In this document: piece after piece, positions 1,028 through 54,877 of the stretch | Numbering within the stretch: position 1 is the stretch's first letter | How the letters are laid out: the number at the start of each line of letters is the position of its first letter | IMG/VR virus record: IMGVR_UViG_3300032018_000003 | Direction: 5' to 3' (one strand) | DNA from: a virus | Taxonomy: Duplodnaviria; Heunggongvirae; Uroviricota; Caudoviricetes | Length of the DNA: 64,000 nucleotides | The notes under the pieces: model-generated | Database searches by the model: none | Told to the model about the DNA's origin: nothing | Seen by the model: only the letters and a program-made list of their open reading frames with translations | Translations under genes and position numbers: made by a program

Positions 1028-1290
1028 ATCAAACCACCATCTTTTAAGATTTTAATCTCATTTTCACACCATTCTATTAATTCATCTACGAAATAAGCAT
1101 CATTACAAGTGCAGTTACCTAAAATTTCACTATCTTTTATTGGATTTAAAATAGTTTTGCAGGTTAAGGCGTGGGCTTTTGCGTATTTTTCTATATAACG
1201 TAACATATATCTATCTTTTCGATTGAAATTATTTACGTGTATTTCTACTCTTTTAAATTCATTAACCAAATCTGTGCTTATTGATTTCAT
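1024..1290 (-). CDS. small protein, paralog A of MKSI...EIKILKDGGLI family (88 aa)
   Basis: Conserved N-terminus MKSISTDLVNE, central KAHALTCKTIL motif and C-terminus EIKILKDGGLI. These are shared with ORFs 3607..3834 and 3998..4297. Confidence 0.5.
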   Translation of the reverse strand: MKSISTDLVNEFKRVEIHVNNFNRKDRYMLRYIEKYAKAHALTCKTILNPIKDSEILGNCTCNDAYFVDELIEWCENEIKILKDGGLI

Positions 1291-2078
1291 CTTAATACCT
1301 CTAATGCTCGATTAAGTTTATCTATTTCTTTTTGTTTTCTTTCTATTTCTGATTTGATAAAGTTTATAACTAATTGATTTTCAGTTTTCTTTAATTCTTC
1401 TTCAGTTTTCTTTAATTCTTCTTCAGTTTTCTTTAATTCTTCTTCAGTTTTCTTTAATTCTTCTTCAGTTGGGCTACTCGAAACGAACCTGCCGTAATTG
1501 TTAAGGTTATTATCACCATCGGCATTCGAGTAGTTACTATTAACATTATAAAGGACAACCGCCCGAACTCCGTTTTTACCATCACAACCATCTAAATAAA
1601 ATCCCATAGCTTCTGATTTATTAAATAATTTAAAATAATTTTCTGCATAATTTGATAATAATTTTGTATCTCCTTCACATGCAGCAATCCACGCAGGGTG
1701 TGATTTTACTTCATTTAATGATAACAAATCATCATATTCAGCATCTTTTATATTTAATACAACAGCACCTTTTTCTTTTTTCATTTGATTATATTGTTCG
1801 TCAGTTATAGGTAAAAAACTACTATTAAAATTTTCATCAATATTGATTAGCAATTCACATTTTGGCACAATAATAAACTCTCCTGTTTCATTAAAATTTT
1901 TAGGATACACAACAGCAGTACAAGAGTCTTGCCAAGTTTCAAATAATTTCCTGTCATTATTTTTTTTCAAATCGATTAATCTTGCCTCAACGTTTTGTCT
2001 GAATGTAAAAGCTTTATCTCTAAAGACAGCCATTCCTTTTGCATAAGTATCGTATCTTTTTGATATTTCGTATTTCAT
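1287..2078 (-). CDS. hypothetical protein with 4x TEEELKK tandem repeat (263 aa)
   Basis: ORF from track. The internal peptide repeat is encoded by the 21-bp tandem repeat at 1380-1470. Confidence 0.45.
   Translation of the reverse strand: MKYEISKRYDTYAKGMAVFRDKAFTFRQNVEARLIDLKKNNDRKLFETWQDSCTAVVYPKNFNETGEFIIVPKCELLINIDENFNSSFLPITDEQYNQMKKEKGAVVLNIKDAEYDDLLSLNEVKSHPAWIAACEGDTKLLSNYAENYFKLFNKSEAMGFYLDGCDGKNGVRAVVLYNVNSNYSNADGDNNLNNYGRFVSSSPTEEELKKTEEELKKTEEELKKTEEELKKTENQLVINFIKSEIERKQKEIDKLNRALEVLR
1380..1470. repeat. tandem repeat, 21-bp unit ttcagttttctttaattcttc x4.3
   Basis: Four perfect copies read directly (1380-1400, 1401-1421, 1422-1442, 1443-1463) plus a partial copy. Confidence 0.9.
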
Positions 2079-15585: not shown

Positions 15586-15876
15586 TTAAAATAAATCAGG
15601 ATTATAATTATCATCGTCACCATTATAAATAAATGGTTTATCTGGATCCGGAATTAAATCTATTAAATTATCGATATCTACATTCGGCAATTTAGAATAT
15701 TTGATCATTGAATTATCTACTCGTTCAATATCTTTAATCTGTATTATATCGATTAGATTAAAATATTTATCATTAGAAAATTTAAAATTCAAAAACAATT
15801 CTTTCTCGTTTCGTAAAATCTTTATAATTCCATTTGTCACTTCGATTTCCATATCATCAGTCCTCCAACTATTCAA
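15586..15876 (-). CDS. hypothetical acidic protein (96 aa)
   Basis: ORF from track. Confidence 0.3.
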   Translation of the reverse strand: MNSWRTDDMEIEVTNGIIKILRNEKELFLNFKFSNDKYFNLIDIIQIKDIERVDNSMIKYSKLPNVDIDNLIDLIPDPDKPFIYNGDDDNYNPDLF

Positions 15877-15905
15877 AATTCAAAATCAAAATATACATAA
15901 ACCTT

Positions 15906-16232
15906 TTATGGTTCTATATATTTAGTGTCGATTAATTTTTGTATATCGTCTTTAAAAAATTCAAAACTTCTTTTATTGTTAAACATAACGTTTGTTATTC
16001 TTTTTTCTTCGTCTGTTAATATTTTAGATTCGTCATAGCTAATTAAAATATATTCTAATATATATTCTGTTTTCGTTATTATATTTCCTTCCATGTGATC
16101 GTATCTATATAAACTTTTAAATTGAAATTCCATATCGGGATAAATATCTTCAATAGAACTCGGCATCTCTTTTAGATCATTCTGATTAAATTTTCTCGTC
16201 ACCACAAACCTTTCTATTATATTAACATTCAT
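15906..16232 (-). CDS. hypothetical protein (108 aa)
   Basis: ORF from track. Confidence 0.3.
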   Translation of the reverse strand: MNVNIIERFVVTRKFNQNDLKEMPSSIEDIYPDMEFQFKSLYRYDHMEGNIITKTEYILEYILISYDESKILTDEEKRITNVMFNNKRSFEFFKDDIQKLIDTKYIEP

Positions 16233-16496
16233 TATCTCAGTCCTCCAACTATTTAAACTTCAAATCTAATAAGTAATCATAAAAATAAAAAAAGAATCTC
16301 AAGTTATTCAAACTTGAAATTCATTGTCCCAATATTCCATCTCTTCCTGTTCGCTTCTATTATTCATTTTCCGATTCACCCGTTCTTTTAAATTTTAAAT
16401 ATATATGATTATTAAAAAGGAAAATCCTTTTAAAAGTCCATTCAAAAGGATCTATAAATTTGATATACTTATATCTATTAAGTAATCTAAAATAAC

Positions 16497-16529
16497 AAAA
16501 AAAAAAAAATAAAGGTTTAAACAACCTTT
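16497..16529 (-). terminator. hairpin followed by T13 tract (read on minus strand)
   Basis: Stem AAAGGTT/AACCTTT with a 5-nt loop, then 13 T on the minus strand. It sits at the 3' end of gene 16517..17041. Confidence 0.45.
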
Positions 16530-17041
16530 ATAATCTTTTCGATTTTAAAAGTAGTAGGAGTTTCCACTACTTTAAAGTCGTTATACCAATCGGCATCGTT
16601 TCCAATACTACCAACTTCAATATTTTTTTTACTTTCTAATCTATATACATAAACGTTTTTAACGTTATTAACAACGTTTAAAAGTGTTGGGGTATTCCCA
16701 TGTTTATTTGTTTTGTTTTTTAGTATTAAGTGTTTTAATATATCAACACTTAAATCAATTACGTCTTTATGTTCAATTTGTCCGAGTTCCCTAAATAAAC
16801 TACTAATAGTTACTCTATTAGAAGTCGCAATTTTAGATGTCCCATTTTTAATCGACTCGATTTGTTTTTGTAAATCGTCCATTTTTTGTTGTTGTAAAGT
16901 AGTTAACACTTCCGTTATTGGTTTTGTATTAACGTCTTTTAATACAATAGTTTCTTTTGTTTTGTTTTCCATTTTATTCAATCCTCCATATATTATATAT
17001 AACCTTTTGGTTAAATATAAGTTGTTTGTTTTGTTACACAA
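16517..17041 (-). CDS. hypothetical protein, paralog of 14565..14912 (174 aa)
   Basis: Shared 22-aa motif. A TATA-like element plus GGAGG SD lie upstream at 16985-17005. Confidence 0.4.
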   Translation of the reverse strand: MCNKTNNLYLTKRLYIIYGGLNKMENKTKETIVLKDVNTKPITEVLTTLQQQKMDDLQKQIESIKNGTSKIATSNRVTISSLFRELGQIEHKDVIDLSVDILKHLILKNKTNKHGNTPTLLNVVNNVKNVYVYRLESKKNIEVGSIGNDADWYNDFKVVETPTTFKIEKIIKVV

Positions 17042-17100
17042 TAACGTTTAAAACGTTTGTGTTGTGTTTTGTTTTTGTTTTGTTTTGTTTGTTTGGTATA
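17042..17100. repeat. GTTTT/GTTTG-rich tract
   Basis: gttttgtttttgttttgttttgtttgtttgg read directly. Confidence 0.7.
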
Positions 17101-17129
17101 ACACTTTGTTTTATTTGATTGTTTGTGTT

Positions 17130-17630
17130 ATACTAATACTACTATATACCTTTGAGTATATAAATGTTTGTGTTGTGTAACATATACCTTTTATAAAAGA
17201 ATCCCTATTAAATAGTATTACGTTATTGTTACTATATAATAGTATTATTTATTTGTTATTATATAGTAGTAGTTATTAAATTTACAGTAGGATCCTAATT
17301 ATGTTACTATTATATAATAACATTAAACCATAACTACTATAAAGTAATATAAGTCTTAATAGTATATCTCTTCTATATATCTATTATGTATAACAATATA
17401 GTTATACAATTAAGATTATCTTAATAGTATAACTTAATAGTATAACTATATTGTTATATGTAACTACTTAATAGTTTTGATATCTTATAACTACTATATA
17501 GTTTATATTATATGTAACTACTTTAAAGGGATCCTTATTTAATACTACTATATAGTTTAAACTTTTTATAACTACTACTCTCAAGTGTTTAAACACTACT
17601 ACTATAAAGTAACGTTTCAAAATTTCAAAA
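17130..17630. repeat. iteron family A, AACTACTATA(W)AGT and TTAATAGTATAACT copies
   Basis: At least 8 related copies, for example at 17332, 17421, 17434, 17490, 17545, 17568 and 17596. The region has no ORF. Confidence 0.6.
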
Positions 17631-17639
17631 TACCTGCAA

Positions 17640-17935
17640 GTGTAGTAATTTGAAAGTAGTGACACTTTTTTAAAACCTTTTAACTACTTTGAAATAAGTA
17701 TTTGAAGTCGTTATTTAAAAGTGGTAACACCCGAGACGTGCAGGGACGTACTTCTATTTGAAGTGATACGTACCCCCATTTGAAATGGTACGTGACGTAT
17801 AGGGGACGTACCTAGGACGTATATATATTTGAATTAGACGTACCTCGCCTGCATTTGAAAGGGGGTACGTACGTAGGCTAAAAGGGGGTACGTCCTATAT
17901 ATAGACGTAGTATATAAAGGGGGTACGTATCAAGT
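17640..17935 (+). repeat. iteron family B, ATTTGAA(R) plus GGGGGTACGT or GGGACGTAC composite repeats
   Basis: ATTTGAA occurs 7 times. A G-run plus TACGT occurs at 17743, 17769 (inverted), 17802, 17861, 17884 and 17918. This is a local GC-rich island. Confidence 0.65.
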
Positions 17936-18028
17936 GAATTTAGCCATATGTTATCGGTACGCTATAGACTAATATACAAAAAGGTATACCAAATTATCAA
18001 CTATAAAAATTAAAAAGGATTTTTTTTT

Positions 18029-18054
18029 ATTTATTTTCCATATAGAAAATAAAT
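18029..18054. repeat. perfect 10-bp inverted repeat atttattttc / gaaaataaat with 6-nt spacer
   Basis: Read directly. Confidence 0.7.
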
Positions 18055-18158
18055 TTATAAAGACCCCCAAAGATATCTATCCTCAAGGGTTATACTCATA
18101 TCCTTTATAAACTTCCTTTCTATATAGACAATAATTAAATAATACACAACAATACACG

Positions 18159-18296
18159 ATACCAAATATGGAAACGTGGCGATTCTATTAAGCCAGAAGG
18201 GTTATACTACTATTTGTTTATAAAGAACATACTAAAACACAATACCAAATATGGAAACGTGGCGATTCTATTAAGCTAGAAGGGTTATACTACTAT
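18159..18296. repeat. tandem direct repeat, 55-bp unit x2 (18159-18213 and 18242-18296), each preceded by a TTTATAAA TATA-like box
   Basis: The copies differ at 1 position. The period is 83 bp. Confidence 0.8.
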
Positions 18297-18334
18297 GTGT
18301 ATATGAATAGTATAGTGGTATAGACATTAGTATA

Positions 18335-18511
18335 TTAAAACTCGCCTCTATCCTTTCCTTTCCAATAGAGTATCGCACCAAGTCTTATTAATAGAAGTAA
18401 TATTATAATTGCAATTGGAATTATAATTAACCATATTTTAAATATATAGAATAGGAACACTAATATAACAACTGATACTAATCCTGCAAGCAATTGGTTT
18501 ACCCAAGTCAT
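18335..18511 (-). CDS. small two-TM membrane protein (58 aa, not in track)
   Basis: Manual translation MTWVNQLLAGLVSVVILVFLFYIFKIWLIIIPIAIIILLLLIRLGAILYWKGKDRGEF. Confidence 0.3.
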   Translation of the reverse strand: MTWVNQLLAGLVSVVILVFLFYIFKIWLIIIPIAIIILLLLIRLGAILYWKGKDRGEF

Positions 18512-18669
18512 TTTAATACACGTCCGTCTTTATTACTCCTGTGCATGATCATATACTGTAACAATTCAATATCCTCTTTGGTTTGTTTTATTTCTGTAAT
18601 AAGGTTGTCGTGTTTAATATATAATTGTTTTAAGTTGTCTAACATATTTTGTAATGTTACTTCAACCAT
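18508..18669 (-). CDS. small coiled-coil protein (53 aa, not in track)
   Basis: Manual translation MVEVTLQNMLDNLKQLYIKHDNL.... Its stop overlaps the next start (ATGA). Confidence 0.3.
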   Translation of the reverse strand: MVEVTLQNMLDNLKQLYIKHDNLITEIKQTKEDIELLQYMIMHRSNKDGRVLK

Positions 18670-18676
18670 TTATAAT

Positions 18677-19018
18677 TCACTTTATATTATTTATTAATAT
18701 GTTGGTGTCCATCTCTCCACCAACTTTATATTCATATCTCTTTACCATCGCTCGTCCATAAGTACAATTAGTACTATTTATATTTCCATTTATCCATGTC
18801 TCATTACAACCATCTGGATAAGTTACTATCTCTGTTGTCGTTACTAACTTATCTTTATTTAAAACCATCCACAACATTGTACTAAATATAATTACAAGTC
18901 CAATAATAACAATTACTTTTTGTTTGAATGAAATGTCTTTCCAATCCTTTTTAAATTTTAATTTGTTTAATACTTTATCGTCTATCTCGAACGACATATC
19001 TTTATCGTTGTCTGTCAT
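18677..19018 (-). CDS. single-pass membrane protein with Cys/N-glyc-sequon ectodomain (113 aa)
   Basis: Transmembrane segment IIGLVIIFSTMLWMV followed by C..NETWINGNINSTNC. Confidence 0.4.
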   Translation of the reverse strand: MTDNDKDMSFEIDDKVLNKLKFKKDWKDISFKQKVIVIIGLVIIFSTMLWMVLNKDKLVTTTEIVTYPDGCNETWINGNINSTNCTYGRAMVKRYEYKVGGEMDTNILINNIK

Positions 19019-19466
19019 TTTTTATTGTCACCTTGTTTAAACTTTTATCATATATATAAAATGCAAGTAAAGAAAAACACATAGGTAAGAAATAAAACAC
19101 TATCGATAGTGTCGCAAACCCAGTAGCTTTTTCTTGCGTTGTTAGTTGTGCCGATTGAATTACTATCTCAGGATTCATTATACCAGATATATTACTATAA
19201 CAACCTATTCCTAACATTAGTGTCGCCATTGTACAAATAAGTATAAACATATAATAAGTCATATTACTACTGAACTTTCCATAGTTGTATGCAAACCATA
19301 CAAAACCATTTATAAGAACTTTAACTATAAACACGAACCATATACTATTAGTTAATAAGAATAATGGATTACCTTCTCCTGGTAATATAAAAAGAGATGT
19401 GATAGCATCAGTTAAATTTAGAATAGTAAAAACAAAAAGTAAAAAAAATAAAGTTTTGTTTTTCAT
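19002..19466 (-). CDS. multi-pass membrane protein (154 aa)
   Basis: About 4 hydrophobic helices. Confidence 0.4.
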   Translation of the reverse strand: MKNKTLFFLLFVFTILNLTDAITSLFILPGEGNPLFLLTNSIWFVFIVKVLINGFVWFAYNYGKFSSNMTYYMFILICTMATLMLGIGCYSNISGIMNPEIVIQSAQLTTQEKATGFATLSIVFYFLPMCFSLLAFYIYDKSLNKVTIKNDRQR

Positions 19467-19649
19467 TCTACATCACAATTTTATTATAATGTTCCCAATA
19501 ATAAAAACACAAACGTTAATACTGAACCACCAAACACACACAGCGTTCCTATCCTATATAAAACCCATCTATTTATTTGTAATGGTTCGTCCATATGCGA
19601 TTTCATTTTAAGTATATGTTCCGTCATTCCCATTTAGATTCATCTCCTA

Positions 19650-20887: not shown

Positions 20888-21802
20888 TTATAATACCTCA
20901 ATAACTTTTGGTGGTGCTATTAAAGTATCAAACCCTTCAGTTAATATTTGTTCTGCTTTCTTCTGCATTAGTTCTTCAAGTAATGGTGTTATATGACTAC
21001 CTTGAGTTATATAAGAAGTTATACTATTGTAGAGTTTCCAACGCGTAACTTTTTGTGTACACGTATCATTCATATAAGTAACTACCTTCTTACCTGTCTT
21101 TGTATCTTTAACTATTACACAAGTAATACCTAATCTTTTTAATATTTGTTCTCTATGTTTAAAACGTTCAAATAATAGTTCACATAACTTGGCACAGTTA
21201 ATCCATTCTGTACTGTCAAGCATACTATCTGAAATCCAGGTTTGTAATTCTGCATTACCGTTAATTATTTTATTAATACCAATACTAACAAACTTATCAA
21301 TCTCCTTTGCTAGTAATTGATTATGTCTAATAGAAAATTGTCCATCTATAAACTTACTTAGTATCATTCCATTCATACAAGCAAGACGTGTTAGTTTAAC
21401 TTGAAAGTTTAATGATGTACTCTTATCATAAGAATTACTTACTCTAAATCCAGTAACAAACTCTTCATTAAGTTTATCAAACTTAAGGTTACGGTTATTA
21501 AAATCAATGTCTGCAAATGCTTTATTACCACTTTGGAACATAGTCATTTTAAATTTGATTCCAAGTCTATCTAATGACTCAGCAATACTATCAAAGTATT
21601 CTTTATGTTGTACCACGTGATAATTATCAGAAACTACATTACACATTTCTTTCTGTGCGTTGTTATATATCCCTCTAAAGTTAGTTACTGGAGTATTATC
21701 TTTACCCCATTGGATAGGTACTAATTGCGCAGTATCAAGTCTCTCTGTTGCTGCCTGAACTTCACCCACTGTTATACATTCTTGTTTTGTTATATTATAC
21801 AT
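20888..21802 (-). CDS. hypothetical protein, possibly DUF932 (phage/plasmid-related) family (304 aa)
   Basis: The region RGIYNNAQKEMCNVVSDNYHVVQHKEYFDSIAESL resembles the conserved DUF932 core. This rests on memory of the family only. Confidence 0.3.
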   Translation of the reverse strand: MYNITKQECITVGEVQAATERLDTAQLVPIQWGKDNTPVTNFRGIYNNAQKEMCNVVSDNYHVVQHKEYFDSIAESLDRLGIKFKMTMFQSGNKAFADIDFNNRNLKFDKLNEEFVTGFRVSNSYDKSTSLNFQVKLTRLACMNGMILSKFIDGQFSIRHNQLLAKEIDKFVSIGINKIINGNAELQTWISDSMLDSTEWINCAKLCELLFERFKHREQILKRLGITCVIVKDTKTGKKVVTYMNDTCTQKVTRWKLYNSITSYITQGSHITPLLEELMQKKAEQILTEGFDTLIAPPKVIEVL

Positions 21803-26059: not shown

Positions 26060-27385
26060 TCAATATTCAAATATGTTTTTCTTAATCTGTGGTTTAATAA
26101 AATAACTTAACTCACTCCACACTCCACTCATATCAATATCCGATATTGTAAAGTTACGGTCTTTAAATTCATCTAATGTACATAGTTTTATACTATTACC
26201 GACGCCCACACCTCTAGTGTTGGGGATAAGAAAGTGTATTCCTGGACCATATTTTTTAGTTATCTGCGCCTGAATTCCACCTAAAGAATTCGAATAATGT
26301 TCTATTTTCTTTACACTTTTTCTCATACACATAAGAGTTGTGTCTTTTTCTAATAGTTCTAATATAATGTTTTTTAAATAAGTTTTACTAAATTTAACTA
26401 TTCCCTTTTCTACTATTTGAGGTACTAAGTAATCCCAAAAAAGTTTTCTAGATAAAGGAGATGTTGATTTTTTTCTTATACCGAGATTTTTTATGACTAA
26501 AGCGTCTTTGGGGTCTTTAAAAATTCCTTTTTTTACATATATATAATTTTTTTGAAGAAGTCCAAACTCATGTTTATTTTTCTGGTCATCTTCGTCTAAA
26601 TCAAATTCGATTTTATTTTTTTTGTTGTCTCCTTTAAAGAAAAACAAATGTTTAATTTCACACTCTAATTCAAAATCAAATGTTGTTTGAGGAAACGGAA
26701 CTGTACTTTTAATATAGTCTATAATTTGTTGTTTGACTTTTAACAATCTTTCAGTGTCCATATAATAATCTAGTATGTATAACGAATCTGTATCAGTATA
26801 TGCAACATCATAACCATTCTCTTTAAACACTTGTCTTGCGTATTTTACCCATTGTTCCCCTAATGAAGTACAATCCTGTGCTGCAGTCATATCATATAAT
26901 AATATAAATGCAGGGTTGTCAGAAACTCCGAAGCTCGTATTTAAGCATATCTTAAACGTGTATTCAAGCGGGTCTACTTTTTTACTTAGTTCTAAATATT
27001 CCTTTACTAACTCTTCTGTTAATACTATTTCTTTTAATTCTAAATCTTTAACGTCTTTTAAATTAATTGTATATATAACTTTACCAATATATTTATCTGC
27101 CTTTTTCATACTAACTACTTTCTTTTCTTCTACTAATACAAATTTTCGTTTATAATAATTTCTTTGATAAAACCATTTACGTTGTAGTTTAGCAACTATA
27201 CCCATTTCATCAGTATAATAAACGCCGCTAACTTTCCATACCCCTCCACCATTCCATGTGGGTCTATTATTAAAATCAAACTCTTTCTTTCTATTTAATA
27301 ATGCGGCTTGAATATATACGTGTGGATATAGAGAAGTATAATCTAATAATATTATATTATATTTTGATTTGTCTATAGTTTCCAT
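26060..27385 (-). CDS. polB: family B DNA polymerase, polymerase-domain fragment (441 aa)
   Basis: Motif A LLDYTSLYPH and motif C YTDTDS are present. It begins immediately after the point where the exonuclease-fragment ORF ends. Confidence 0.85.
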   Translation of the reverse strand: METIDKSKYNIILLDYTSLYPHVYIQAALLNRKKEFDFNNRPTWNGGGVWKVSGVYYTDEMGIVAKLQRKWFYQRNYYKRKFVLVEEKKVVSMKKADKYIGKVIYTINLKDVKDLELKEIVLTEELVKEYLELSKKVDPLEYTFKICLNTSFGVSDNPAFILLYDMTAAQDCTSLGEQWVKYARQVFKENGYDVAYTDTDSLYILDYYMDTERLLKVKQQIIDYIKSTVPFPQTTFDFELECEIKHLFFFKGDNKKNKIEFDLDEDDQKNKHEFGLLQKNYIYVKKGIFKDPKDALVIKNLGIRKKSTSPLSRKLFWDYLVPQIVEKGIVKFSKTYLKNIILELLEKDTTLMCMRKSVKKIEHYSNSLGGIQAQITKKYGPGIHFLIPNTRGVGVGNSIKLCTLDEFKDRNFTISDIDMSGVWSELSYFIKPQIKKNIFEY

Positions 27386-27752: not shown

Positions 27753-28029
27753 TATTAACCTCTAAATATTCTTTTGCTTTATTAAAATTATATTTATTAG
27801 AATAACTATATTCACCTTCTATAGATATATTTACACACGTAAAACTATCATAAAGAATAACATCGTTTGTTTTATAATTATAATAACCTTTATAATTACA
27901 AAAATCTTCTGCGGTTGTTAAATCTTCATATATTGACATCCCCATTAAAATAGGTCCACCAACTATACACATTGAAATTATTAATGTAAAATAATCTATT
28001 TCTCCTTTTTTATTTTTAATCTGTTGCAT
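27736..28029 (-). CDS. small type-II membrane Cys protein inserted between polB fragments (97 aa)
   Basis: MQQIKNKKGE start plus a transmembrane segment. It is a paralog of 27390..27752. Confidence 0.45.
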   Translation of the reverse strand: MQQIKNKKGEIDYFTLIISMCIVGGPILMGMSIYEDLTTAEDFCNYKGYYNYKTNDVILYDSFTCVNISIEGEYSYSNKYNFNKAKEYLEVNNVTTD

Positions 28030-28783
28030 GGAACTCTTCCCCGGTAGGATAACTTACATACCCACCACTAATTTTCTCTTCACTCTCATCTTCACCACTA
28101 TCTCCAAATTTATCAGGATACTTTGGTGTCCATCCTAATGAATAACAAATAACTTTATATACAAAACTTGCTGCACTTGCAGTCAAATAAGTTTTTCTAT
28201 TAATATCATCTTCAGGTACGAAATTTTTAAACACACTAAAATAATCTTCAATAAACTCATACAATTTTTTAGTTACTTCTATATCTCTATTAAGATACTC
28301 GCGCATTGTTTTAAGTTCTTCGTTGGTCCATTGTTTTTTATTAAACAAATTCTTATCAACATGTATCTTAGAACTTTCTTCATCTACTAAATGTAATGTC
28401 TTAGTAATATAATCCAAACTAAATTCCATTAGGAGGTCTTTTAACATACCATCTTTAACTTTCATAATTATTGCTCTGTCAACAATTACGTTTCTTAAAT
28501 CAACATATACTTTATTATAAAATTTAATCCCGTGTCGTTTAAGAACATTATTATCATAACCAGGATTATCTTTCTTACCTTCAATATTGAACCCCACGAT
28601 TACTCTGTGCGCATTAATAACCTTTTGTACCTCTGACAAATCTGTTAATATATATGGTTTCCCTGTCTTATAACTATAACAACCAAACAATCGGAACTCA
28701 TCGTTCTCTGCATCGGGCATTCCCTTAGTCGGTGTATATGTTTCAATGTCATATACTAAAACGTCTTTGTCAATGTCTACCAT
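28016..28783 (-). CDS. polB: family B DNA polymerase, 3'-5' exonuclease-domain fragment (255 aa)
   Basis: Exo I YDIETY, Exo II GFNIE..YDNNVL and Exo III YLNRD are present. It ends with the pre-motif-A sequence GGYVSYPTGE. Confidence 0.8.
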   Translation of the reverse strand: MVDIDKDVLVYDIETYTPTKGMPDAENDEFRLFGCYSYKTGKPYILTDLSEVQKVINAHRVIVGFNIEGKKDNPGYDNNVLKRHGIKFYNKVYVDLRNVIVDRAIIMKVKDGMLKDLLMEFSLDYITKTLHLVDEESSKIHVDKNLFNKKQWTNEELKTMREYLNRDIEVTKKLYEFIEDYFSVFKNFVPEDDINRKTYLTASAASFVYKVICYSLGWTPKYPDKFGDSGEDESEEKISGGYVSYPTGEEFHATD

Positions 28784-29517: not shown

Positions 29518-29932
29518 TATTAGTCATACTTTTCATTGTTTTATTAAATACTGTATTAATAATAACCCCTGCGGTAACTGTTGCTGCAATAATCGCAGTC
29601 ATCTCGCTAATTGTTTTTAATAATAATAATCGTCTATTGTTTTTAATAATAATAATCGTTTAAACAACTGTTCCTCGTCTTTTGTAAAAATGTTACTCTT
29701 TAACATTGAATTCAATTCTACCAAAATTAATTCATCTAATAAAAATAAATATTTGTTTTCTTCTTCCGTTTTCATATTAATCCTCTCTCCTCTTTAATTT
29801 TTGTTTGCATACTTTCAGCAAACCTTTTTCTAAATTCTAAATATTCGTCTTTAAGTTTAATTTCGTTTATTATTACTTCTGCAATTTCTCCAGTAACTAC
29901 ACACTGAAATAAATTATATTTCATATCATCGT

Positions 29933-35903: not shown

Positions 35904-35977
35904 AAAGATATTAATCTTTATTATTTAAATAACACTATACCATTTATATAATGTAACTTGTTTATATAGTTTGTGTT

Positions 35978-36536
35978 TCTAAAAAAACTTCTTTATAATA
36001 AAAATTTAGATATAATCTAATTACATAAGTTTTTTTAGAAAATATATATTACATAAGTTTTTTTTCTGTTTTTATAACTATTTATTATAATGTTAAGATT
36101 TTTTAAAAATAGTACTTTTTTGTAGTAACACAATAAATTAACATTTTTTTTGACATTATATATGTTTTCAAAAATATATATTGCGGTATATAATTCCCTA
36201 GGTTTTAGTGTTTTTTTGGTGTTTTTTACCCTTTTTTCTAAAAAAACTTATGTAACGAAAACAGATTTATGTAATGAGGGTATTGTAAAATGCTAGTATA
36301 ACCCATATATCATAGAAAAAAAAATATTACATACGTTACATACGACATTTCGAAAATTGGTATACAAAATATTTCTAAAAAAACTTTATAACCTATTTTT
36401 GTGTATTACCTAAATAGTAGTAAAAACATTAAGCGCGTTGTTAAAAATAATTTTTTTTATATACGAAATGGTATATACGAAAATTATAATATAAAATTCA
36501 TACTGAAGTTGAAAACGCTTATGTAACGTATGTAAT
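35978..36536. promoter_or_regulatory. strand-switch intergenic region with repeated TTACATAAG/CTTATGTAA and TCTAAAAAAACTT motifs
   Basis: TTACATAAG at 36021 and 36049. Its reverse complement at 36248, 36267 (variant) and 36518. TCTAAAAAAACTT at 35978, 36238 and 36374. Confidence 0.45.
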
Positions 36537-36595
36537 TTTCGAATAGTATATTAGAAAAGGTAATTATATAAATACCATTTACTATATTTAACATA

Positions 36596-36736
36596 ATGTT
36601 TAAAGAAATACATTTAGCAGCAATTGATGCTGCGCGTATCTTTGGTGAGGACTATCATCTAAGCTGGATATTTTTCTATCCACTTTGGTTTGTCGCGATC
36701 CTTGTCACGTTTAAAAAAGATAAAGGAGATGTTTAA
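36596..36736 (+). CDS. small membrane protein (46 aa, not in track)
   Basis: Manual translation MFKEIHLAAIDAARIFGEDYHLSWIFFYPLWFVAILVTFKKDKGDV. Confidence 0.3.
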   Translation: MFKEIHLAAIDAARIFGEDYHLSWIFFYPLWFVAILVTFKKDKGDV

Positions 36737-45775: not shown

Positions 45776-46480
45776 ATGAAGATTGACAAAACAGAGATAG
45801 TAAACTTTTTTAAGAAAATTAGAATGGATAAAGACGAAAAGATTGAAGAAGCAAAATTTAACTTTGATACTAATGGACTTAAAGTATTAGCAACGTCTAA
45901 TACTAAATCAACACAAGTGAGTGCATTATTAAAACCTGCTGCATTTAAAGAATATGAAAAAATTGGTGTAGTAGCAATAAACGATCTTACTAATGTTCAA
46001 GGAGTATTTGATAGATTTAAAGGAGTTATTACAATTAAAAAAAGTGGTAATTGTATGATAGTGAATGGGGACAACAAAAAAGTTGATATTGAATTGGTAA
46101 GCGAACAGTTTCTTGTAAATGAAAAAGAACCCCAAGGATTAGTTTTTGAGAACGAAATTATTATTGATAGTACAACATTAAAAGAAATTGTTGCAGACAT
46201 TGAACTTAATAAAGAAGCAGAATTAATTGTTACTACAGGAGATAAGGTAGTTAAATTTAGTAATACCGGAAAATATAAATTTGAGACTACACTTGAAGCA
46301 CCATTATGTAAAGTAGGAACTGTAGTAAAATTCGGTCAAGCATTTATTGATGCAACAAAAAATCTTAATGGTATGTTGAAACTACATGTAGGAACAAATT
46401 ATCCATGTAAGATTGTTGAAGAGTCTGATATAAGTACAATAAGTATAATTATTGCACCGCGTATAGCCGACTCAGAGTGA
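45776..46480 (+). CDS. candidate sliding clamp (PCNA-like), weak (234 aa)
   Basis: The size and alternating hydrophobic pattern fit PCNA, and it lies directly upstream of the RFC-like gene. No strict motif was seen. Confidence 0.35.
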   Translation: MKIDKTEIVNFFKKIRMDKDEKIEEAKFNFDTNGLKVLATSNTKSTQVSALLKPAAFKEYEKIGVVAINDLTNVQGVFDRFKGVITIKKSGNCMIVNGDNKKVDIELVSEQFLVNEKEPQGLVFENEIIIDSTTLKEIVADIELNKEAELIVTTGDKVVKFSNTGKYKFETTLEAPLCKVGTVVKFGQAFIDATKNLNGMLKLHVGTNYPCKIVEESDISTISIIIAPRIADSE

Positions 46481-46816: not shown

Positions 46817-47713
46817 ATGACATTCAACCCTAAAGATATTGTTTGGACCGAGAAATATAGACCCAAATTAGTAAACGAAATTGTTGGAGATTTTAAAGAT
46901 AAGATAAAAGAGTATCTTAAAAATTCTGATAACATGCCACATTTTTTATTTTACTCACGTACTCCTGGAACCGGGAAAACAACAATTGTAAAAGCAATCA
47001 TTAATGAACTTGGTTGTGATAGTATAACAATAAACAGTTCCGATGATAGAGGTATAGAAGCAATAAGAGAAAAGGTTAAAGAGTTTGCTAAATCTAAAAG
47101 TAGTAATGGTAATAGGCGTTGTGTATTCTTAGACGAAATTGATGGTGCGACTCGTCCTGCACAAGATGCTCTTCGTAATATAATGGAGACATACGCAAGT
47201 AACGCATTTTTTTGCCTCACATGTAATAATATAAATAAGGTTTCGGATGCGATACAATCACGTTGTGTATGTATAAATTTCGCATACCCAAATAGAGACG
47301 AGATAAAAAAATATCTTGAAATGATATGTGAAAAAGAAAATTTAAATTATACTGATGAAGGACTTGATGAAATATTAAAATATAATTATCCTAGTATAAG
47401 AAATTGTGTTATATGTTTACAAGACTTGAAAACCGAAAGTAAAGATATAACAAAAGAAAATATTAAACCTATTAATAGTATGTTTGAAGAAATGTGGCAG
47501 AAAATAAAAAACAAAGAGTGGAAGGATATTAAAATTATTATAATGGAGAGTACACTTGACGCGAGAGAACTTAATACTTATTTTTGGGAGAAAGCATTAG
47601 AAGAAGAAAATATTAAAATTATTCAAACATGTTGTAGAAATGAAAAGGATATTAGTACTGGTGCAGATGCTAATATTATAGTAGTAACAAGTTTAATTGA
47701 GATGGTAAAATGA
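46817..47713 (+). CDS. rfc: replication factor C small-subunit-like clamp loader (298 aa)
   Basis: WTEKYRP box, P-loop RTPGTGKTT, Walker B FLDEIDG and SRC motif QSRCV. Confidence 0.8.
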   Translation: MTFNPKDIVWTEKYRPKLVNEIVGDFKDKIKEYLKNSDNMPHFLFYSRTPGTGKTTIVKAIINELGCDSITINSSDDRGIEAIREKVKEFAKSKSSNGNRRCVFLDEIDGATRPAQDALRNIMETYASNAFFCLTCNNINKVSDAIQSRCVCINFAYPNRDEIKKYLEMICEKENLNYTDEGLDEILKYNYPSIRNCVICLQDLKTESKDITKENIKPINSMFEEMWQKIKNKEWKDIKIIIMESTLDARELNTYFWEKALEEENIKIIQTCCRNEKDISTGADANIIVVTSLIEMVK

Positions 47714-48804: not shown

Positions 48805-49323
48805 ATGGACATATTTTACGTAATAAACAATTTATATACAAATAAGAAATCTCAATGGATCATAGAATTAGATGATAAAGAATTACAAGAGAATAAAATA
48901 GAACCTTTTATGATACAACGTTTTTTGTCTATGAATGATGAAGTAAGACAACTAACGCGATGGTTGGATAAATACACGTTTACTATATCACCAAAGATGT
49001 ATATAAGTTTAGCATGGAGCGTATTACCTAAATATCAAAAACCTCCTTATGTTCCGTACATTAAGATAAAAACAAAAGAGGACGAGTATTGTTTCATTTT
49101 GCCAAAGATAAGACAACATTTACAATTAAGTCATAACGATTATAACGCATTGAAAAGCAGATTAATAAAAAACATTGAGACAGATAAATTTAATTGGTTT
49201 GCATTTTATGGTGTGCCAAAGAGCTATTATAAATTTTATAATTTAAATTTTGAAAATGTTAAAACCTTTGGCGAGACAGAAAAGAAACCTGTAGAAGTGG
49301 GTTTAAGTAAATGGGGATTATAA
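48805..49323 (+). CDS. hypothetical protein (172 aa)
   Basis: ORF from track. Confidence 0.3.
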   Translation: MDIFYVINNLYTNKKSQWIIELDDKELQENKIEPFMIQRFLSMNDEVRQLTRWLDKYTFTISPKMYISLAWSVLPKYQKPPYVPYIKIKTKEDEYCFILPKIRQHLQLSHNDYNALKSRLIKNIETDKFNWFAFYGVPKSYYKFYNLNFENVKTFGETEKKPVEVGLSKWGL

Positions 49324-53746: not shown

Positions 53747-54877
53747 ATGGTGTTTAATGAAGATAATCTAGGTATTGCACGTAAACGTCTAGTAGAAAAA
53801 ATTATTCTTAGTAATTGGTTAGTTAAATCTCCTATAGACAGAACTTATACATACAACGAACTTCTTTTTGTTATTCAAGAGATGATGCAATCGGAAGGTA
53901 AAAATTATTTAGAACTTAATAGTGCTAATAGAGGATATGAAATATTTAGAAATTTTGTTGAATTACTTCTTTATAGAAATCTTGCTAATTATGATAGTAT
54001 GATATTACTCACTAGTCCTAAAGGAACTGGAAAATCATCAGCAGCAATTATGATTGCGAGATATTGGTGTAAATTATTAGGAAGAAATTTCGATCCAGAA
54101 AAAAACATAGCTTATAATAATAACGATGTATCAAATAAAATAGATGAGTTAGCTCCTTTTTCTGCACTTATTTGTGATGAGGCAGTACGGTTTGCTCTTT
54201 CGTCAGAATGGGCAAAAAAAGAACATCGTGAATTGAGAAAAAAACTTGCACAGGTAAGAACAAAACATTTTTTATTTATTTTATGTTTTCCATTAAAAGT
54301 ATATAAACTAGAAAGTACGTACCTCCAAAGCTATGTTAATTATTGGGTTGATCTTTATGCTAGAGGCCGAAGTGTAATATATATTAAAAACGCAAATCCT
54401 ACTCAAGATGGTTGGGCATTAAAAGAATTTGATAAAGTCGTTGGAAGTTATAATGAATTTACTTCAGAAGAACAAATAAAACAAAAGTTAATGAAACATC
54501 CGAATTATTGGCAAATGATGAAAATTCCAAAAGTACCTGAACACGTTTATGAAAAATATATGAAAACGCGAGAACGAAATGTATATGATAGTGAAGATGG
54601 TAATTTATTAGCTAGTACATCCAAAGAAGAAATATATCGTGCATTATTAATATTAGCATTAAAAGATATAATGACTAACGATACAACATTATCAATGAAT
54701 AGAATTATATTACACATAAAAAACCAGTACGATATAACTATAAATAAAAGTATAGTACAATTTATTCTTGAAGATAGTAAACAATTAATAAGTAAAGTAA
54801 GAGAACAAGTATTTGATGGTAACATTGATGAAAAATACCAGACAGAAAATAAACCAACTGGAAAAATAAATGAATGA
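53747..54877 (+). CDS. P-loop NTPase (possible packaging or replication ATPase) (376 aa)
   Basis: Walker A LTSPKGTGKSS and Walker B LICDEAVRF. Confidence 0.5.
   Translation: MVFNEDNLGIARKRLVEKIILSNWLVKSPIDRTYTYNELLFVIQEMMQSEGKNYLELNSANRGYEIFRNFVELLLYRNLANYDSMILLTSPKGTGKSSAAIMIARYWCKLLGRNFDPEKNIAYNNNDVSNKIDELAPFSALICDEAVRFALSSEWAKKEHRELRKKLAQVRTKHFLFILCFPLKVYKLESTYLQSYVNYWVDLYARGRSVIYIKNANPTQDGWALKEFDKVVGSYNEFTSEEQIKQKLMKHPNYWQMMKIPKVPEHVYEKYMKTRERNVYDSEDGNLLASTSKEEIYRALLILALKDIMTNDTTLSMNRIILHIKNQYDITINKSIVQFILEDSKQLISKVREQVFDGNIDEKYQTENKPTGKINE

Follow-up and report, generated by a model that had tools for sequence, protein, structure and literature searches.

Lytic phages can carry large non-coding repeat regions at their module boundaries, examples being the injection-stop-signal region of T5 and the early promoter cluster of T7. 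The satellite phage P4 possesses a bipartite origin, composed of ori and crr, which is bound by the alpha primase-helicase, and crr carries two 120-bp repeats. In the iteron origins of plasmids and phages (R6K/pPS10/P1 oriR and lambda ori), short repeats of 17-22 bp with two-helical-turn phasing are clustered at one site per replicon, accompanied by an adjoining AT-rich, least stable stretch, extra inverted repeats or palindromes and, alongside, a winged-helix-type gene for a Rep protein with two winged-helix domains. In archaeal oriC, clusters of ORB/mini-ORB elements are recognized by Orc1/Cdc6. The ORB/mini-ORB consensus contains conserved TTCC and GAA cores (PMC1904270), often together with a G-string, and a haloarchaeal ORB-like element reads TAACAGCGGAAACAGTGGGGTGGGGGGGT (PMC3528665).

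In this study, an ORF-free block of ~1.36 kb (16973-18334) was analyzed in a 64-kb stretch of viral DNA (the window) belonging to a circle of ~96.8 kb. The comparisons strongly support the view that this block is a cis-acting, protein-binding hub conserved in a family of uncultured viruses with low GC content. They also suggest, with a probability that we estimate at roughly 0.45, that the block is a putative replication origin with its origin-binding gene.

The block resembles the T5 and T7 regions in being ORF-free over at least 1 kb, in its direct and inverted repeats and palindromes, and in its position just ahead of very small genes. Unlike those regions, it gives no indication of genome ends, host-polymerase promoter clusters or DnaA boxes; moreover, its pairing of iterons with a winged-helix gene is not a feature of T5 or T7. 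Like P4, the element encodes a primase-helicase of the PrimPol/D5_N/SF3 type with P4-family matches and has two separate non-coding repeat regions, one of which contains a tandem duplication; unlike in P4, the two regions lie 18 kb apart and share no iteron beyond chance.

Iteron origins are matched in the clustering of short repeats at one site, the adjoining AT-rich and least stable stretch, the neighboring gene for a predicted winged-helix-type protein and the additional inverted repeats and palindromes. However, the iteron of the window measures 9 bp, is quasi-palindromic and recurs at irregular intervals, the neighboring gene encodes one small predicted winged-helix domain (~110-150 aa), and the block also contains G-box/ACGT repeats as well as an 83-bp duplication. 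As in ORB/mini-ORB elements, the repeats end in ..GAAA(T/C) with a G-string 1-4 nt later, an AT-rich candidate unwinding region adjoins them, and several genes of the element are of archaeal flavor. The arrangement reads TTTGAAAT-ATA-GGGTA in the relatives and ATTTGAAAGGGGGT in the window, with a G-string-like GGGTA/GGGGGT present and the TTCC half absent. Unlike in ORB origins, the repeats lack the TTCC core (PMC1904270) and do not form an inverted pair flanking the AT-rich element, and the flanking genes include no AAA+ family. Furthermore, no protein of the Orc1/Cdc6, Rep or DnaA families was found beside the block or among the proteins scanned from 74 kb of the circle.

Architecture of the block

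The block is limited by the start codon of the minus-strand gene 16517-16972 and by the stop of 18335-18511 (Table 1). According to the ORF list of the window, the sole mechanical ORF longer than 40 aa inside it is 17468-17665, which has a GTG start and a low-complexity product, and the statement of the first-pass annotation that the block lacks a credible ORF was thus borne out. The same annotation had called it the only long ORF-free stretch, which proved incorrect, since a second ORF-free and repeat-rich stretch is present near 36 kb. All repeat classes that it had named were found, and each was restricted to the block. An independently assembled Logan contig was 100% identical to the window over 5672 nt and ended at position 18188, within the 83-bp duplication, and circular assemblies of the genome were obtained in two permutations. 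No phage sequence was matched by 16000-19500 in a BLASTN search.

Table 1. Coordinates of the block, its neighbors and the second non-coding stretch (strand: - minus,. none assigned)
Feature	Position	Strand	Remarks
Conserved small protein gene, candidate iteron-binding protein	16517..16972	-	First gene downstream of the block
Promoter-like segment and 5' leader ahead of the winged-helix gene	16973..17041	-	Read from sequence; putative function
GTTTT/GTTTG tract	17055..17094	.	TRF periods 5, 11, 16; (CAAAA/CAAAC)n on the gene strand
AT-rich repeat field, candidate DNA-unwinding element	17130..17612	.	20% GC
144-bp imperfect palindrome	17352..17495	.	Centre 17417; inverted repeats I1, I4; right arm with 13-bp tandem duplication
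Cluster of ~8-10 ATTTSAAAT iterons (family-wide motif)	17613..17861	.	Spacings 13-56 bp
GC island	17720-17945		44.7% GC vs 27% overall
G-box/ACGT repeats	17736..17932	.	GGGGGTACGT (three forward, one inverted) and GGACGTAC variants
126-bp imperfect palindrome	18017..18142	-	-39.1 kcal/mol (z -5.5) on - strand vs -21.8 (z -2.5) on +
Tandem duplication, 2 x 83 bp	18135..18300	.	Copies 18135-18217, 18218-18300
Last gene of the upstream module	18335..18511	-	58 aa, hydrophobic; right-hand block boundary
Second ORF-free, repeat-rich stretch	35904-36596		To 36890 at 50-aa ORF cut-off

In the left part of the block, the GTTTT/GTTTG tract reported earlier was recovered by TRF, and it is followed by the AT-rich field, where words of the TAACTACTATA / AATAGTAT family occur ~20 times, some in each orientation. 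The pattern ACTACT[AT]T[AG][AT]A occurs nine times in 74 kb, and eight of these copies are located at 17138-17683, in agreement with the earlier count of at least eight; the ACTACT-type copies show 27-bp phasing within a 54-bp higher-order repeat at 17454-17561. The word TTAATAGTATA has three copies in the window, all of them forward (17356, 17421 and 17434), and its reverse complement, GTTATACTATTAA, equals GGTTATACTACTAT minus CTA, so the two repeat families previously distinguished represent a single family read in opposite directions. Over all 64 kb, duplex stability is lowest in the 200 bp at 17311-17510 (-0.98 kcal/mol/bp vs a mean of -1.163, sd 0.051), adjoining the iterons. For the 144-bp palindrome, the predicted folds of the two strands are of equal quality (-33 to -35 kcal/mol, z ~-7 to -10), which points to symmetry at the DNA level.

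With at most one mismatch allowed, ATTTSAAAT has eight matches in the 240 bp of 17622-17861, where ~0.3 would be expected (Poisson P ~1e-9); its window-wide density is 1.27 per kb. Seven of the eight share a single orientation, with the central G on the plus strand, and all eight flank the least stable stretch on the same side. The spacings (26, 39, 13, 56, 22, 49 and 26 bp) are irregular and show no helical phasing of ~11 or 22 bp. No recurrence of the iterons was found at other promoters of the window, and this confinement to one site fits a once-per-genome site. The GC-rich island with ATTTGAA iterons described in the first-pass annotation was confirmed: it harbors six of the 18 forward ATTTGAA of the window, all four GGGGGTACGT and, inside 190 bp, 13 of the 182 ACGT, and the G-box/ACGT repeats are flanked by a 17-nt inverted repeat (17764-17780 / 17916-17932). 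A search for the iteron pattern AAAGGGGGTACGT..AAAGGGGGTACGT returned 0 matches in JGI metagenomes and one chance match in a high-GC Acidimicrobiales MAG.

The perfect 10-bp inverted repeat noted previously is present, but it is one among many perfect palindromes of 10-14 bp in the block, and the two large imperfect palindromes (17352-17495 and 18017-18142) had not been recorded. Because of G.U pairs, the latter is far more stable as minus-strand RNA, a result with which a second folding analysis agreed; this points to a probable transcribed hairpin, and it probably serves as a terminator, processing or stability element closing the upstream gene module. The tandem duplication had been described with a unit of 55 bp; the duplication exists, but its period is 83 bp. 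Its copies are identical at 72 of 83 positions (87%), with a near-perfect core of ~60 bp, and both CCAAATATGG and AAGGGTTATACTACTAT are present in each of them; GGGTTATACT occurs a third time at 18087. No exact match to a 28-mer of the repeat was obtained in IMG/VR, and no counterpart of the duplication was found in the relatives.

On the other side of the block, the leader of gene 16517-16972 contains a GGAGG Shine-Dalgarno sequence at ~16983-16987 and, at ~17011-17037, an A-rich element with a TATA-like CTTATATTTAA; in the relatives, elements of the AAACAAACA-TTTATAAA type are found about as far from the start codon. A sigma-70 promoter scan gave no enrichment over shuffles. The encoded protein consists of a lysine-rich N-terminal tail and, in an AlphaFold model, a predicted winged-helix domain; this single small domain has no match to a Rep family. 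On the basis of this model and its location, the protein is the prime candidate for the iteron/G-box binder.

Conservation in related viruses

The relatives, of which there are at least nine, are metagenomic viruses with a GC content of 25-32% and a DUF932 protein 42-53% identical to that of the window. Their loci were gathered by alignment search, as a locus search with the single ATPase protein gave no matches. One hallmark ATPase has more than 300 homologues, and among 50,697 deposited phage genomes there was no match to any of them. The primase-helicase has no close relatives in IMG/VR and elsewhere only matches of ~25% identity; it was therefore unusable for synteny.

A syntenic ORF-free gap of 0.75-1.2 kb was present in the relatives (L013, L015, L016, L017, L019, L025, L035, L047 and L050), and gene-caller gaps of 1080 bp (L169/L170) and 1157 bp (L171) were also observed. 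The gene order ahead of the gap is PolB-exo, PolB and DUF932, followed by homologues of 20317, 19002, 18677 and 18508, the last two corresponding to the neighbor genes 18677-19018 and 18508-18669 of the window. BLASTN between the block of the window and the gaps of the relatives yielded no alignment for any of them; the position and motif content of the block are conserved across the virus family, whereas its alignable sequence is not.

The gaps of the relatives contain clusters of the quasi-palindrome ATTTGAAAT together with GGGTA "G-boxes". The most widely common enriched 7-mer is ATTTGAA (9 of 10 regions, 11.6-fold). TTTGAAA occurs at 71 sites in ~8.9 kb of these gaps, preceded by A at -1 in 90% and followed by T at +7 in 75%, and TAGGGTA is enriched 91-fold, L047 carrying GGGGTACGTCC. 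Moreover, the motif built from the relatives selects 17622-17861 in the window. Only 12 iteron clusters were detected in 552 kb of the relatives' loci. In eight of the nine loci with the conserved winged-helix gene, one cluster lies 330-870 bp upstream of this gene and none elsewhere; three of the remaining four clusters abut contig ends, and the fourth begins ~200 bp from one. In seven of eight relatives' loci, the least stable 200 bp was found in the gap, at or just past the iterons. The origin reading gains support from these data, since the ATTTGAAAT iterons are family-wide and the least stable 200 bp adjoins them both in the window and in those seven relatives.

Putative origin and competing explanations

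Iterons, a melting-prone stretch and an adjacent winged-helix gene together point to an origin architecture. Read on the gene strand, the block starts where the upstream replication/recombination module closes, with the large, probably transcribed hairpin, continues with the ATTTGAAAT iteron cluster interleaved with G-boxes and then the most easily melted DNA of the window, which is AT-rich and repeat-dense and bears the 144-bp palindrome, and ends with the putative promoter of the conserved small winged-helix gene, which opens a long run of tiny genes. In the most likely mechanism, a sequence-specific protein, for which the winged-helix protein is the prime candidate, would oligomerize on the iteron/G-box array and strain the adjoining AT-rich element open, and the opened element would then admit the helicase-primase of the virus together with the split PolB, its clamp and the clamp loader. 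The same block would form the end of one transcription unit and the start of the next.

The first-pass annotation had proposed an origin or regulatory hub. The conserved position, the motifs and the linkage to the winged-helix gene uphold a cis-acting hub, whereas the GC skew, which that annotation had named as a refuting criterion, is the main evidence against the origin part: the cumulative minimum in the window, 64 kb of the circle, lies not at 17-18 kb but at ~36 kb. Since the coding strand switches divergently at this same point, gene orientation confounds the skew test. In L017, L025 and L044, the homologues of the plus-arm genes of the window are co-directional with PolB, and the 36-kb strand switch is thus not family-wide, unlike the block. 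Across the block itself, a skew step of +0.11 to +0.12 was observed in the window, L017 and L169, and a step of ~0 in L015, L019 and L171. The second ORF-free stretch, which lies at this minimum, adjoins the primase-helicase, ranks second in the window for low duplex stability and has its own direct and inverted repeats, including a TTACATAAG family and a perfect 22-nt inverted repeat. The two non-coding regions (17.0-18.3 vs 35.9-36.6 kb) have in common a single GGGTTATACT and a single TACTACTATTT, and the number of 10-mers shared between 16976-18334 and 35904-36596 (23 vs 14 +/- 7 in control windows) is not significant.

It is also conceivable, although we consider it unlikely, that the block acts only in transcriptional control, as a terminator/promoter boundary of two modules with operator- or enhancer-like iterons and G-boxes and a winged-helix protein that would be an autoregulator or a temporal switch for the tiny, probably early genes. 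Such a role would agree with the location of the block, in the window and the relatives, directly upstream of a conserved winged-helix gene, the first in a series of small ORFs that all run in one direction, with the TATATAG-type words oriented with the genes and with the minus-strand-biased hairpin at 18017-18142. In the relatives, furthermore, the iterons are preceded by a partly conserved sequence of ~180 nt, which closes with a conserved hairpin and T-run (GAAAATA-CC-TATTTTC-TTTT). However, clusters 330-870 bp upstream of a gene start are far for classical operators, there are 5-13 sites per genome with the motif missing from other promoters, and the conserved 24-mer promoter of the element (TAGAAAC..TATATAAATA, 10 copies) does not occur within the block.

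As lambda cosB/Nu1 illustrates, small terminases are winged-helix proteins of comparable size whose repeated binding sites precede the gene that encodes them, and the winged-helix gene beside the repeats recalls this arrangement. A pac/cos-type array at genome ends or a terminal repeat, with a small-terminase-like winged-helix protein, would be compatible with the two permutations of the circle (terminal redundancy), with the several relatives' contigs that end in or near the block and with a weak, non-significant match of one family member to T7-type DNA_Packaging_2 (E 0.006). Nevertheless, a packaging site is improbable, as the genes downstream (40-230 aa) include no terminase family in the window or the relatives, the neighbors of the block are replication rather than structural genes, and contig ends are expected at repeats anyway, the Logan break falling exactly in the 83-bp duplication.

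The strand-biased stability of the 18017-18142 hairpin, the ~180-nt sequence of the relatives, in whose hairpin one compensatory change was observed, and a GC skew inside the block that departs from that of the flanking genes could likewise mean that the block consists mainly of non-coding RNAs, with the 83-bp units and hairpins as RNA genes and the repeats as their promoters. This seems quite improbable. The Rfam 15 covariance models gave 0 matches in the window at gathering score and, in the block, just chance-level miRNA matches with E of 1 or more; no tRNA was found, and the 83-bp units fold no better than shuffles. Moreover, RNAalifold supports the terminal hairpin only, and an HMM built from the relatives' conserved pre-iteron sequence found no counterpart in the window. 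A partition centromere, in which a TubR/ParR-like winged-helix protein would bind the array to maintain a plasmid-like episome, is very improbable, as neither ParA, ParM nor TubZ occurs among the neighboring genes in the window and the relatives.

Host domain and significance of the pairing

The virus family is probably archaeal, its genes giving mixed indications of the host domain. The RFC small subunit is closest to archaeal RFCS, and C2H2 and TFIIB-type zinc ribbons and MJ1316 lean in the same direction. The gp44-like clamp loader, CoiA and the TATAAATA core of the promoter 24-mer lean toward bacteria and phages, and the clamp loader resembles T4-type gp44 as closely as it does archaeal RFCS. 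It is tentatively proposed, as a reading that we regard as somewhat doubtful, that the ATTTGAAAT/G-box array and the small winged-helix protein may constitute an undescribed pair of origin and origin-binding protein with an ORB-like layout (GAAAT, then a G-string) that is independent of Orc1/Cdc6. This pair would serve the replicon of a large, widespread and undescribed low-GC virus family, probably archaeal, of sediments and saline lakes.

If the block is an origin, a cis element would be defined for the whole family and a trans factor proposed, both of which would be testable without host culture. If the host is archaeal, GAAAT with a G-string in the absence of an Orc1/Cdc6 gene would bear on the relationship between viral and cellular ORB origins. 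The succession of ATTTGAAAT clusters and the winged-helix gene provides a compact signature by which fragmentary contigs of the family may be found and oriented. Even if the block should instead be a regulatory or packaging site, it would still be the best conserved non-coding element of the family.

Extent and repeat content of the block

Sequence comparison marks the ORF-free, repeat-packed block at 16973-18334 as a cis-acting hub that is conserved within, and specific to, its virus family and whose architecture resembles that of an origin. The window has a GC content of 27-28%, and its densely packed genes, with Shine-Dalgarno motifs, lie on the - strand leftwards from about 35.7 kb and on the + strand rightwards from about 36.9 kb. 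In agreement with the first-pass annotation, no credible ORF was found across the 1362 bp that separate the start codon of 16517-16972 (-) from the stop of 18335-18511 (-), and all the repeat classes previously listed were recovered there, with the tandem duplication having a period of 83 bp rather than 55 bp. The block had also been described as the sole long ORF-free stretch, which required correction, as a second, repeat-rich one was found (see table). In addition, an ORF of >957 aa at 61125-64000 (+), which has a Laminin_G_3/concanavalin-like domain and continues past the right end of the window, is missing from ORF listings, so that this stretch could pass for another ORF-free region.

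Eight of the nine copies of ACTACT[AT]T[AG][AT]A (the ACTACTATA family) in the 74 kb searched lie in the block, phased at 27 bp within a 54-bp higher-order repeat. All three copies of TTAATAGTATA, the ACTACTATA-family word inverted and minus CTA, also fall in the block, and the GC island harbors 13 of the 182 ACGT of the window, 4 of 4 GGGGGTACGT and six ATTTGAA. An independent Logan assembly contains 5.7 kb identical to the window and breaks inside the 83-bp duplication. Moreover, the leaders upstream of genes 15586-15852 and 15906-16232 (15853-15905 and 16233-16359) have a near-identical common segment (..TTTGAA..AATAGTTGGAGGACTGA..) as duplicated 5' leaders, with the iteron-like GATTTGAAG / GATTTTGAATTTTGAA immediately ahead of the Shine-Dalgarno motif.

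Coordinates of features in the window
Feature	Position	Strand	Remarks
G/T tract	17055-17094		
Imperfect palindrome, 144 bp	17352-17495		symmetric at DNA level
GC island	17720-17945		44.7% GC
Imperfect palindrome	18017-18142		- strand RNA fold -39.1 vs -21.8 kcal/mol on other strand
Tandem duplication	18135-18300		2 x 83 bp; 72/83 identical positions; core about 60 bp
Second ORF-free region	35904-36596		0.7 kb; beside primase-helicase, divergent strand switch
Promoter-like 24-nt motif	35980, 31318, 25871, 21867, 6645	-	
Promoter-like 24-nt motif	38193, 42317, 45543, 50219, 53581	+	
Split family-B DNA polymerase	26060-27385 and 28016-28783	-	separate exonuclease and polymerase genes
Clamp, clamp-loader large and small subunits	45776-46480, 46817-47713, 48805-49323	+	T4-like order
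P-loop ATPase	53747-54877	+	

Conservation in relatives and the linked winged-helix gene

The DUF932 protein (20888-21802), 2.5 kb from the block, was used as a handle for relatives, and 80 JGI metagenomic loci were retrieved. By tblastn, the gene order PolB-exo / PolB / ... / DUF932 / 20317 / 19002 / 18677 / 18508 was kept, and no homology to the left of the block was recognisable in these loci. An ORF-free gap followed the conserved order in L013, L015, L016, L017, L019, L025, L035, L047 and L050, and gene-caller gaps of 1080 and 1157 bp were present in L169/L170 and L171, respectively. The gaps gave no BLASTN alignment with the window, and alignments among them were limited to close pairs (L017/L169, 72%; L016/L019, 71%). 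Nevertheless, word enrichment indicates that these non-alignable gaps have a common motif grammar: ATTTGAA was the most widely shared enriched 7-mer (9 of 10 regions, 11.6-fold), TAGGGTA was enriched 91-fold with strand bias, and TATATAG 14-fold in gene orientation. The iteron consensus, ATTTGAAAT, is a 9-bp quasi-palindrome (71 sites in relatives), and when run on the window it gave 8 matches in 17622-17861; across the whole window the motif was not enriched (81 found vs 99 expected). Furthermore, L047 contains GGGGTACGTCC and TTTGAAATAGTAGTG, which match GGGGGTACGTCC and ATTTGAAAGTAGTG of the window.

A hairpin block, GAAAATA-CC-TATTTTC-TTTT-GAGAAT, was also observed in L013, L015, L017, L019, L035, L169 and L171 (e.g. 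L169:5392-5417), upstream of the iteron cluster and with a partly conserved stretch of about 180 nt in front of it. It comprises an 8-bp hairpin with one compensatory GC-to-AU change and a T-run, and may serve to terminate transcription or form the 3' terminus of a small RNA; the window yielded no counterpart.

The first gene past the gap, predicted to encode a winged-helix protein (AlphaFold model), is homologous across the window and five aligned relatives (24-30% identity), and its family comprises 35 proteins 84-134 aa long. With an iteron cluster taken as at least 5 TTT[GC]AAA within 400 bp, only 12 were counted in 552 kb of relatives' loci. A cluster lies 330-870 bp upstream of the winged-helix gene in eight of nine gene-bearing loci, with none elsewhere in those eight; three of the other four abut contig ends, beyond which the gene would lie, and the remaining cluster begins at a distance of about 200 bp from such an end. 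This linkage suggests that the adjacent winged-helix protein is a better candidate for binding the block than the initiators named in the first-pass annotation, namely the primase-helicase, the P-loop ATPase and the zinc-ribbon proteins.

Origin-like layout and the region near 36 kb

The lowest duplex stability of any 200-bp stretch in the whole window was found at 17311-17510 (16.5% GC), at the 144-bp palindrome and directly after the iterons in gene orientation. Similarly, in seven of eight relatives the locus-wide stability minimum (200 bp) was placed within the gap, at the iteron cluster or immediately past it. The gene-strand order of upstream module end, iterons with G-boxes (GGGTA-type), melting-prone AT-rich repeats, promoter and winged-helix gene is conserved. 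Because this is the classical layout of iterons, DUE and adjacent binding protein, an origin with its candidate binding protein is ranked first, at a probability of roughly 0.45. No specific origin family was assigned, because the iteron spacing is irregular and the winged-helix domain single and small, unlike in such families, and a Rep or Orc1/Cdc6 gene was absent among the proteins scanned (74 kb).

The earlier proposal of an origin or regulatory hub was thus supported in part, by conservation and architecture, whereas the GC skew pointed elsewhere: its cumulative minimum within the window lies outside the block, at about 36 kb, together with a coding-strand switch that confounds skew there and softens this counter-evidence. 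The second ORF-free region contains the second least stable DNA of the window, and its repeats include TTACATAAGTTTTTTT twice with a perfect 22-nt inverted copy 191 nt away, TTACATACG twice with inverted copies, and TTTCTAAAAAAACTT three times. It must be taken seriously as an origin candidate for this genome, either instead of the block or in addition to it. Homologues of the + arm genes run in the same direction as PolB in L017, L025 and L044; the divergent junction is therefore not shared by the family, in contrast to the iteron block. Among relatives, the skew step across the block was inconsistent. The two non-coding regions had no iteron in common, which is evidence against a P4-like ori/crr pair. 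The 74 kb contain four copies of GGGTTATACT (18087, 18199, 18282, +; 36303, -), all within these two regions, and it is the sole specific word linking them.

A purely regulatory hub, without origin function, is a less probable reading. The conserved hairpin and T-run ahead of the iterons in relatives and the - strand hairpin in the window favor it, and make a transcription boundary likely in any case. Ten copies of a conserved ~24-nt promoter-like motif, T(T)AGAAAC(A/G)NAAAC(T/C)TATATAAA(T/C)A, were found, all co-oriented with genes and none in the 17-18.3 kb block. The motif includes TATAAATA, the core of T4 late promoters, and would fit an archaeal TATA box plus upstream element equally well. 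A packaging site is improbable, since the expected partner genes are absent from the neighbouring genes scanned in the window and in relatives; non-coding RNA genes, which found little support, are still less so, and a centromere, likewise lacking its expected partner genes, is the least probable.

The replicon and its virus family

The exact primase sequence is recorded on a 97,032-bp contig and other window genes on a differently permuted 96,932-bp ENA contig; a circular assembly of about 96.8 kb follows for the replicon. Genes in the window specify a PrimPol/D5/SF3 primase-helicase, a C5 methylase, two SF2 helicases, a PCNA/Rad1-like clamp, an RFC-small-subunit/gp44-like clamp loader with a gp62-like subunit, and DUF932, SPFH, CoiA-like, DnaJ-domain and C2H2/TFIIB-type zinc-ribbon proteins. 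Both split polymerase genes are kept in relatives (43-57% identity). Two tandem repeats were also observed. One (21 bp x 4.3, perfect, in frame) lies at 1380-1470 inside ORF 1287-2078 (-); in the ENA assembly of this virus it is shorter by exactly two copies (42 nt), and a Logan contig breaks there, so this protein-internal repeat varies in copy number. The other (26 bp x 1.9, perfect) lies at 29610-29659, in a short intergenic/small-ORF zone upstream of the C5 methylase gene.

An archaeal host is tentatively favored, because archaeal RFCS are the best PDB hits of the clamp loader (its large subunit is nearest to archaeal RFC small subunits), because several zinc-finger, ribbon and MJ1316 families occur, and because the relatives were sampled in sediment, hypersaline and Antarctic-lake metagenomes; on the other side, T4-type gp44 is just as near to the clamp loader.

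The P-loop ATPase matched no Pfam family, and its fold is nearest to VirB4/TcpA/FtsK-HerA and the STIV2 B204 packaging NTPase. It has >300 homologues (50-64% identity) on long contigs, many intein-interrupted and some with HNH domains, which places the element in a large uncultured family. Among 50,697 deposited phage genomes, nothing similar to the ATPase or to the block was found. This ATPase is a hallmark gene of an undescribed virus family, and the block of that family belongs with the iteron-type control or origin regions.
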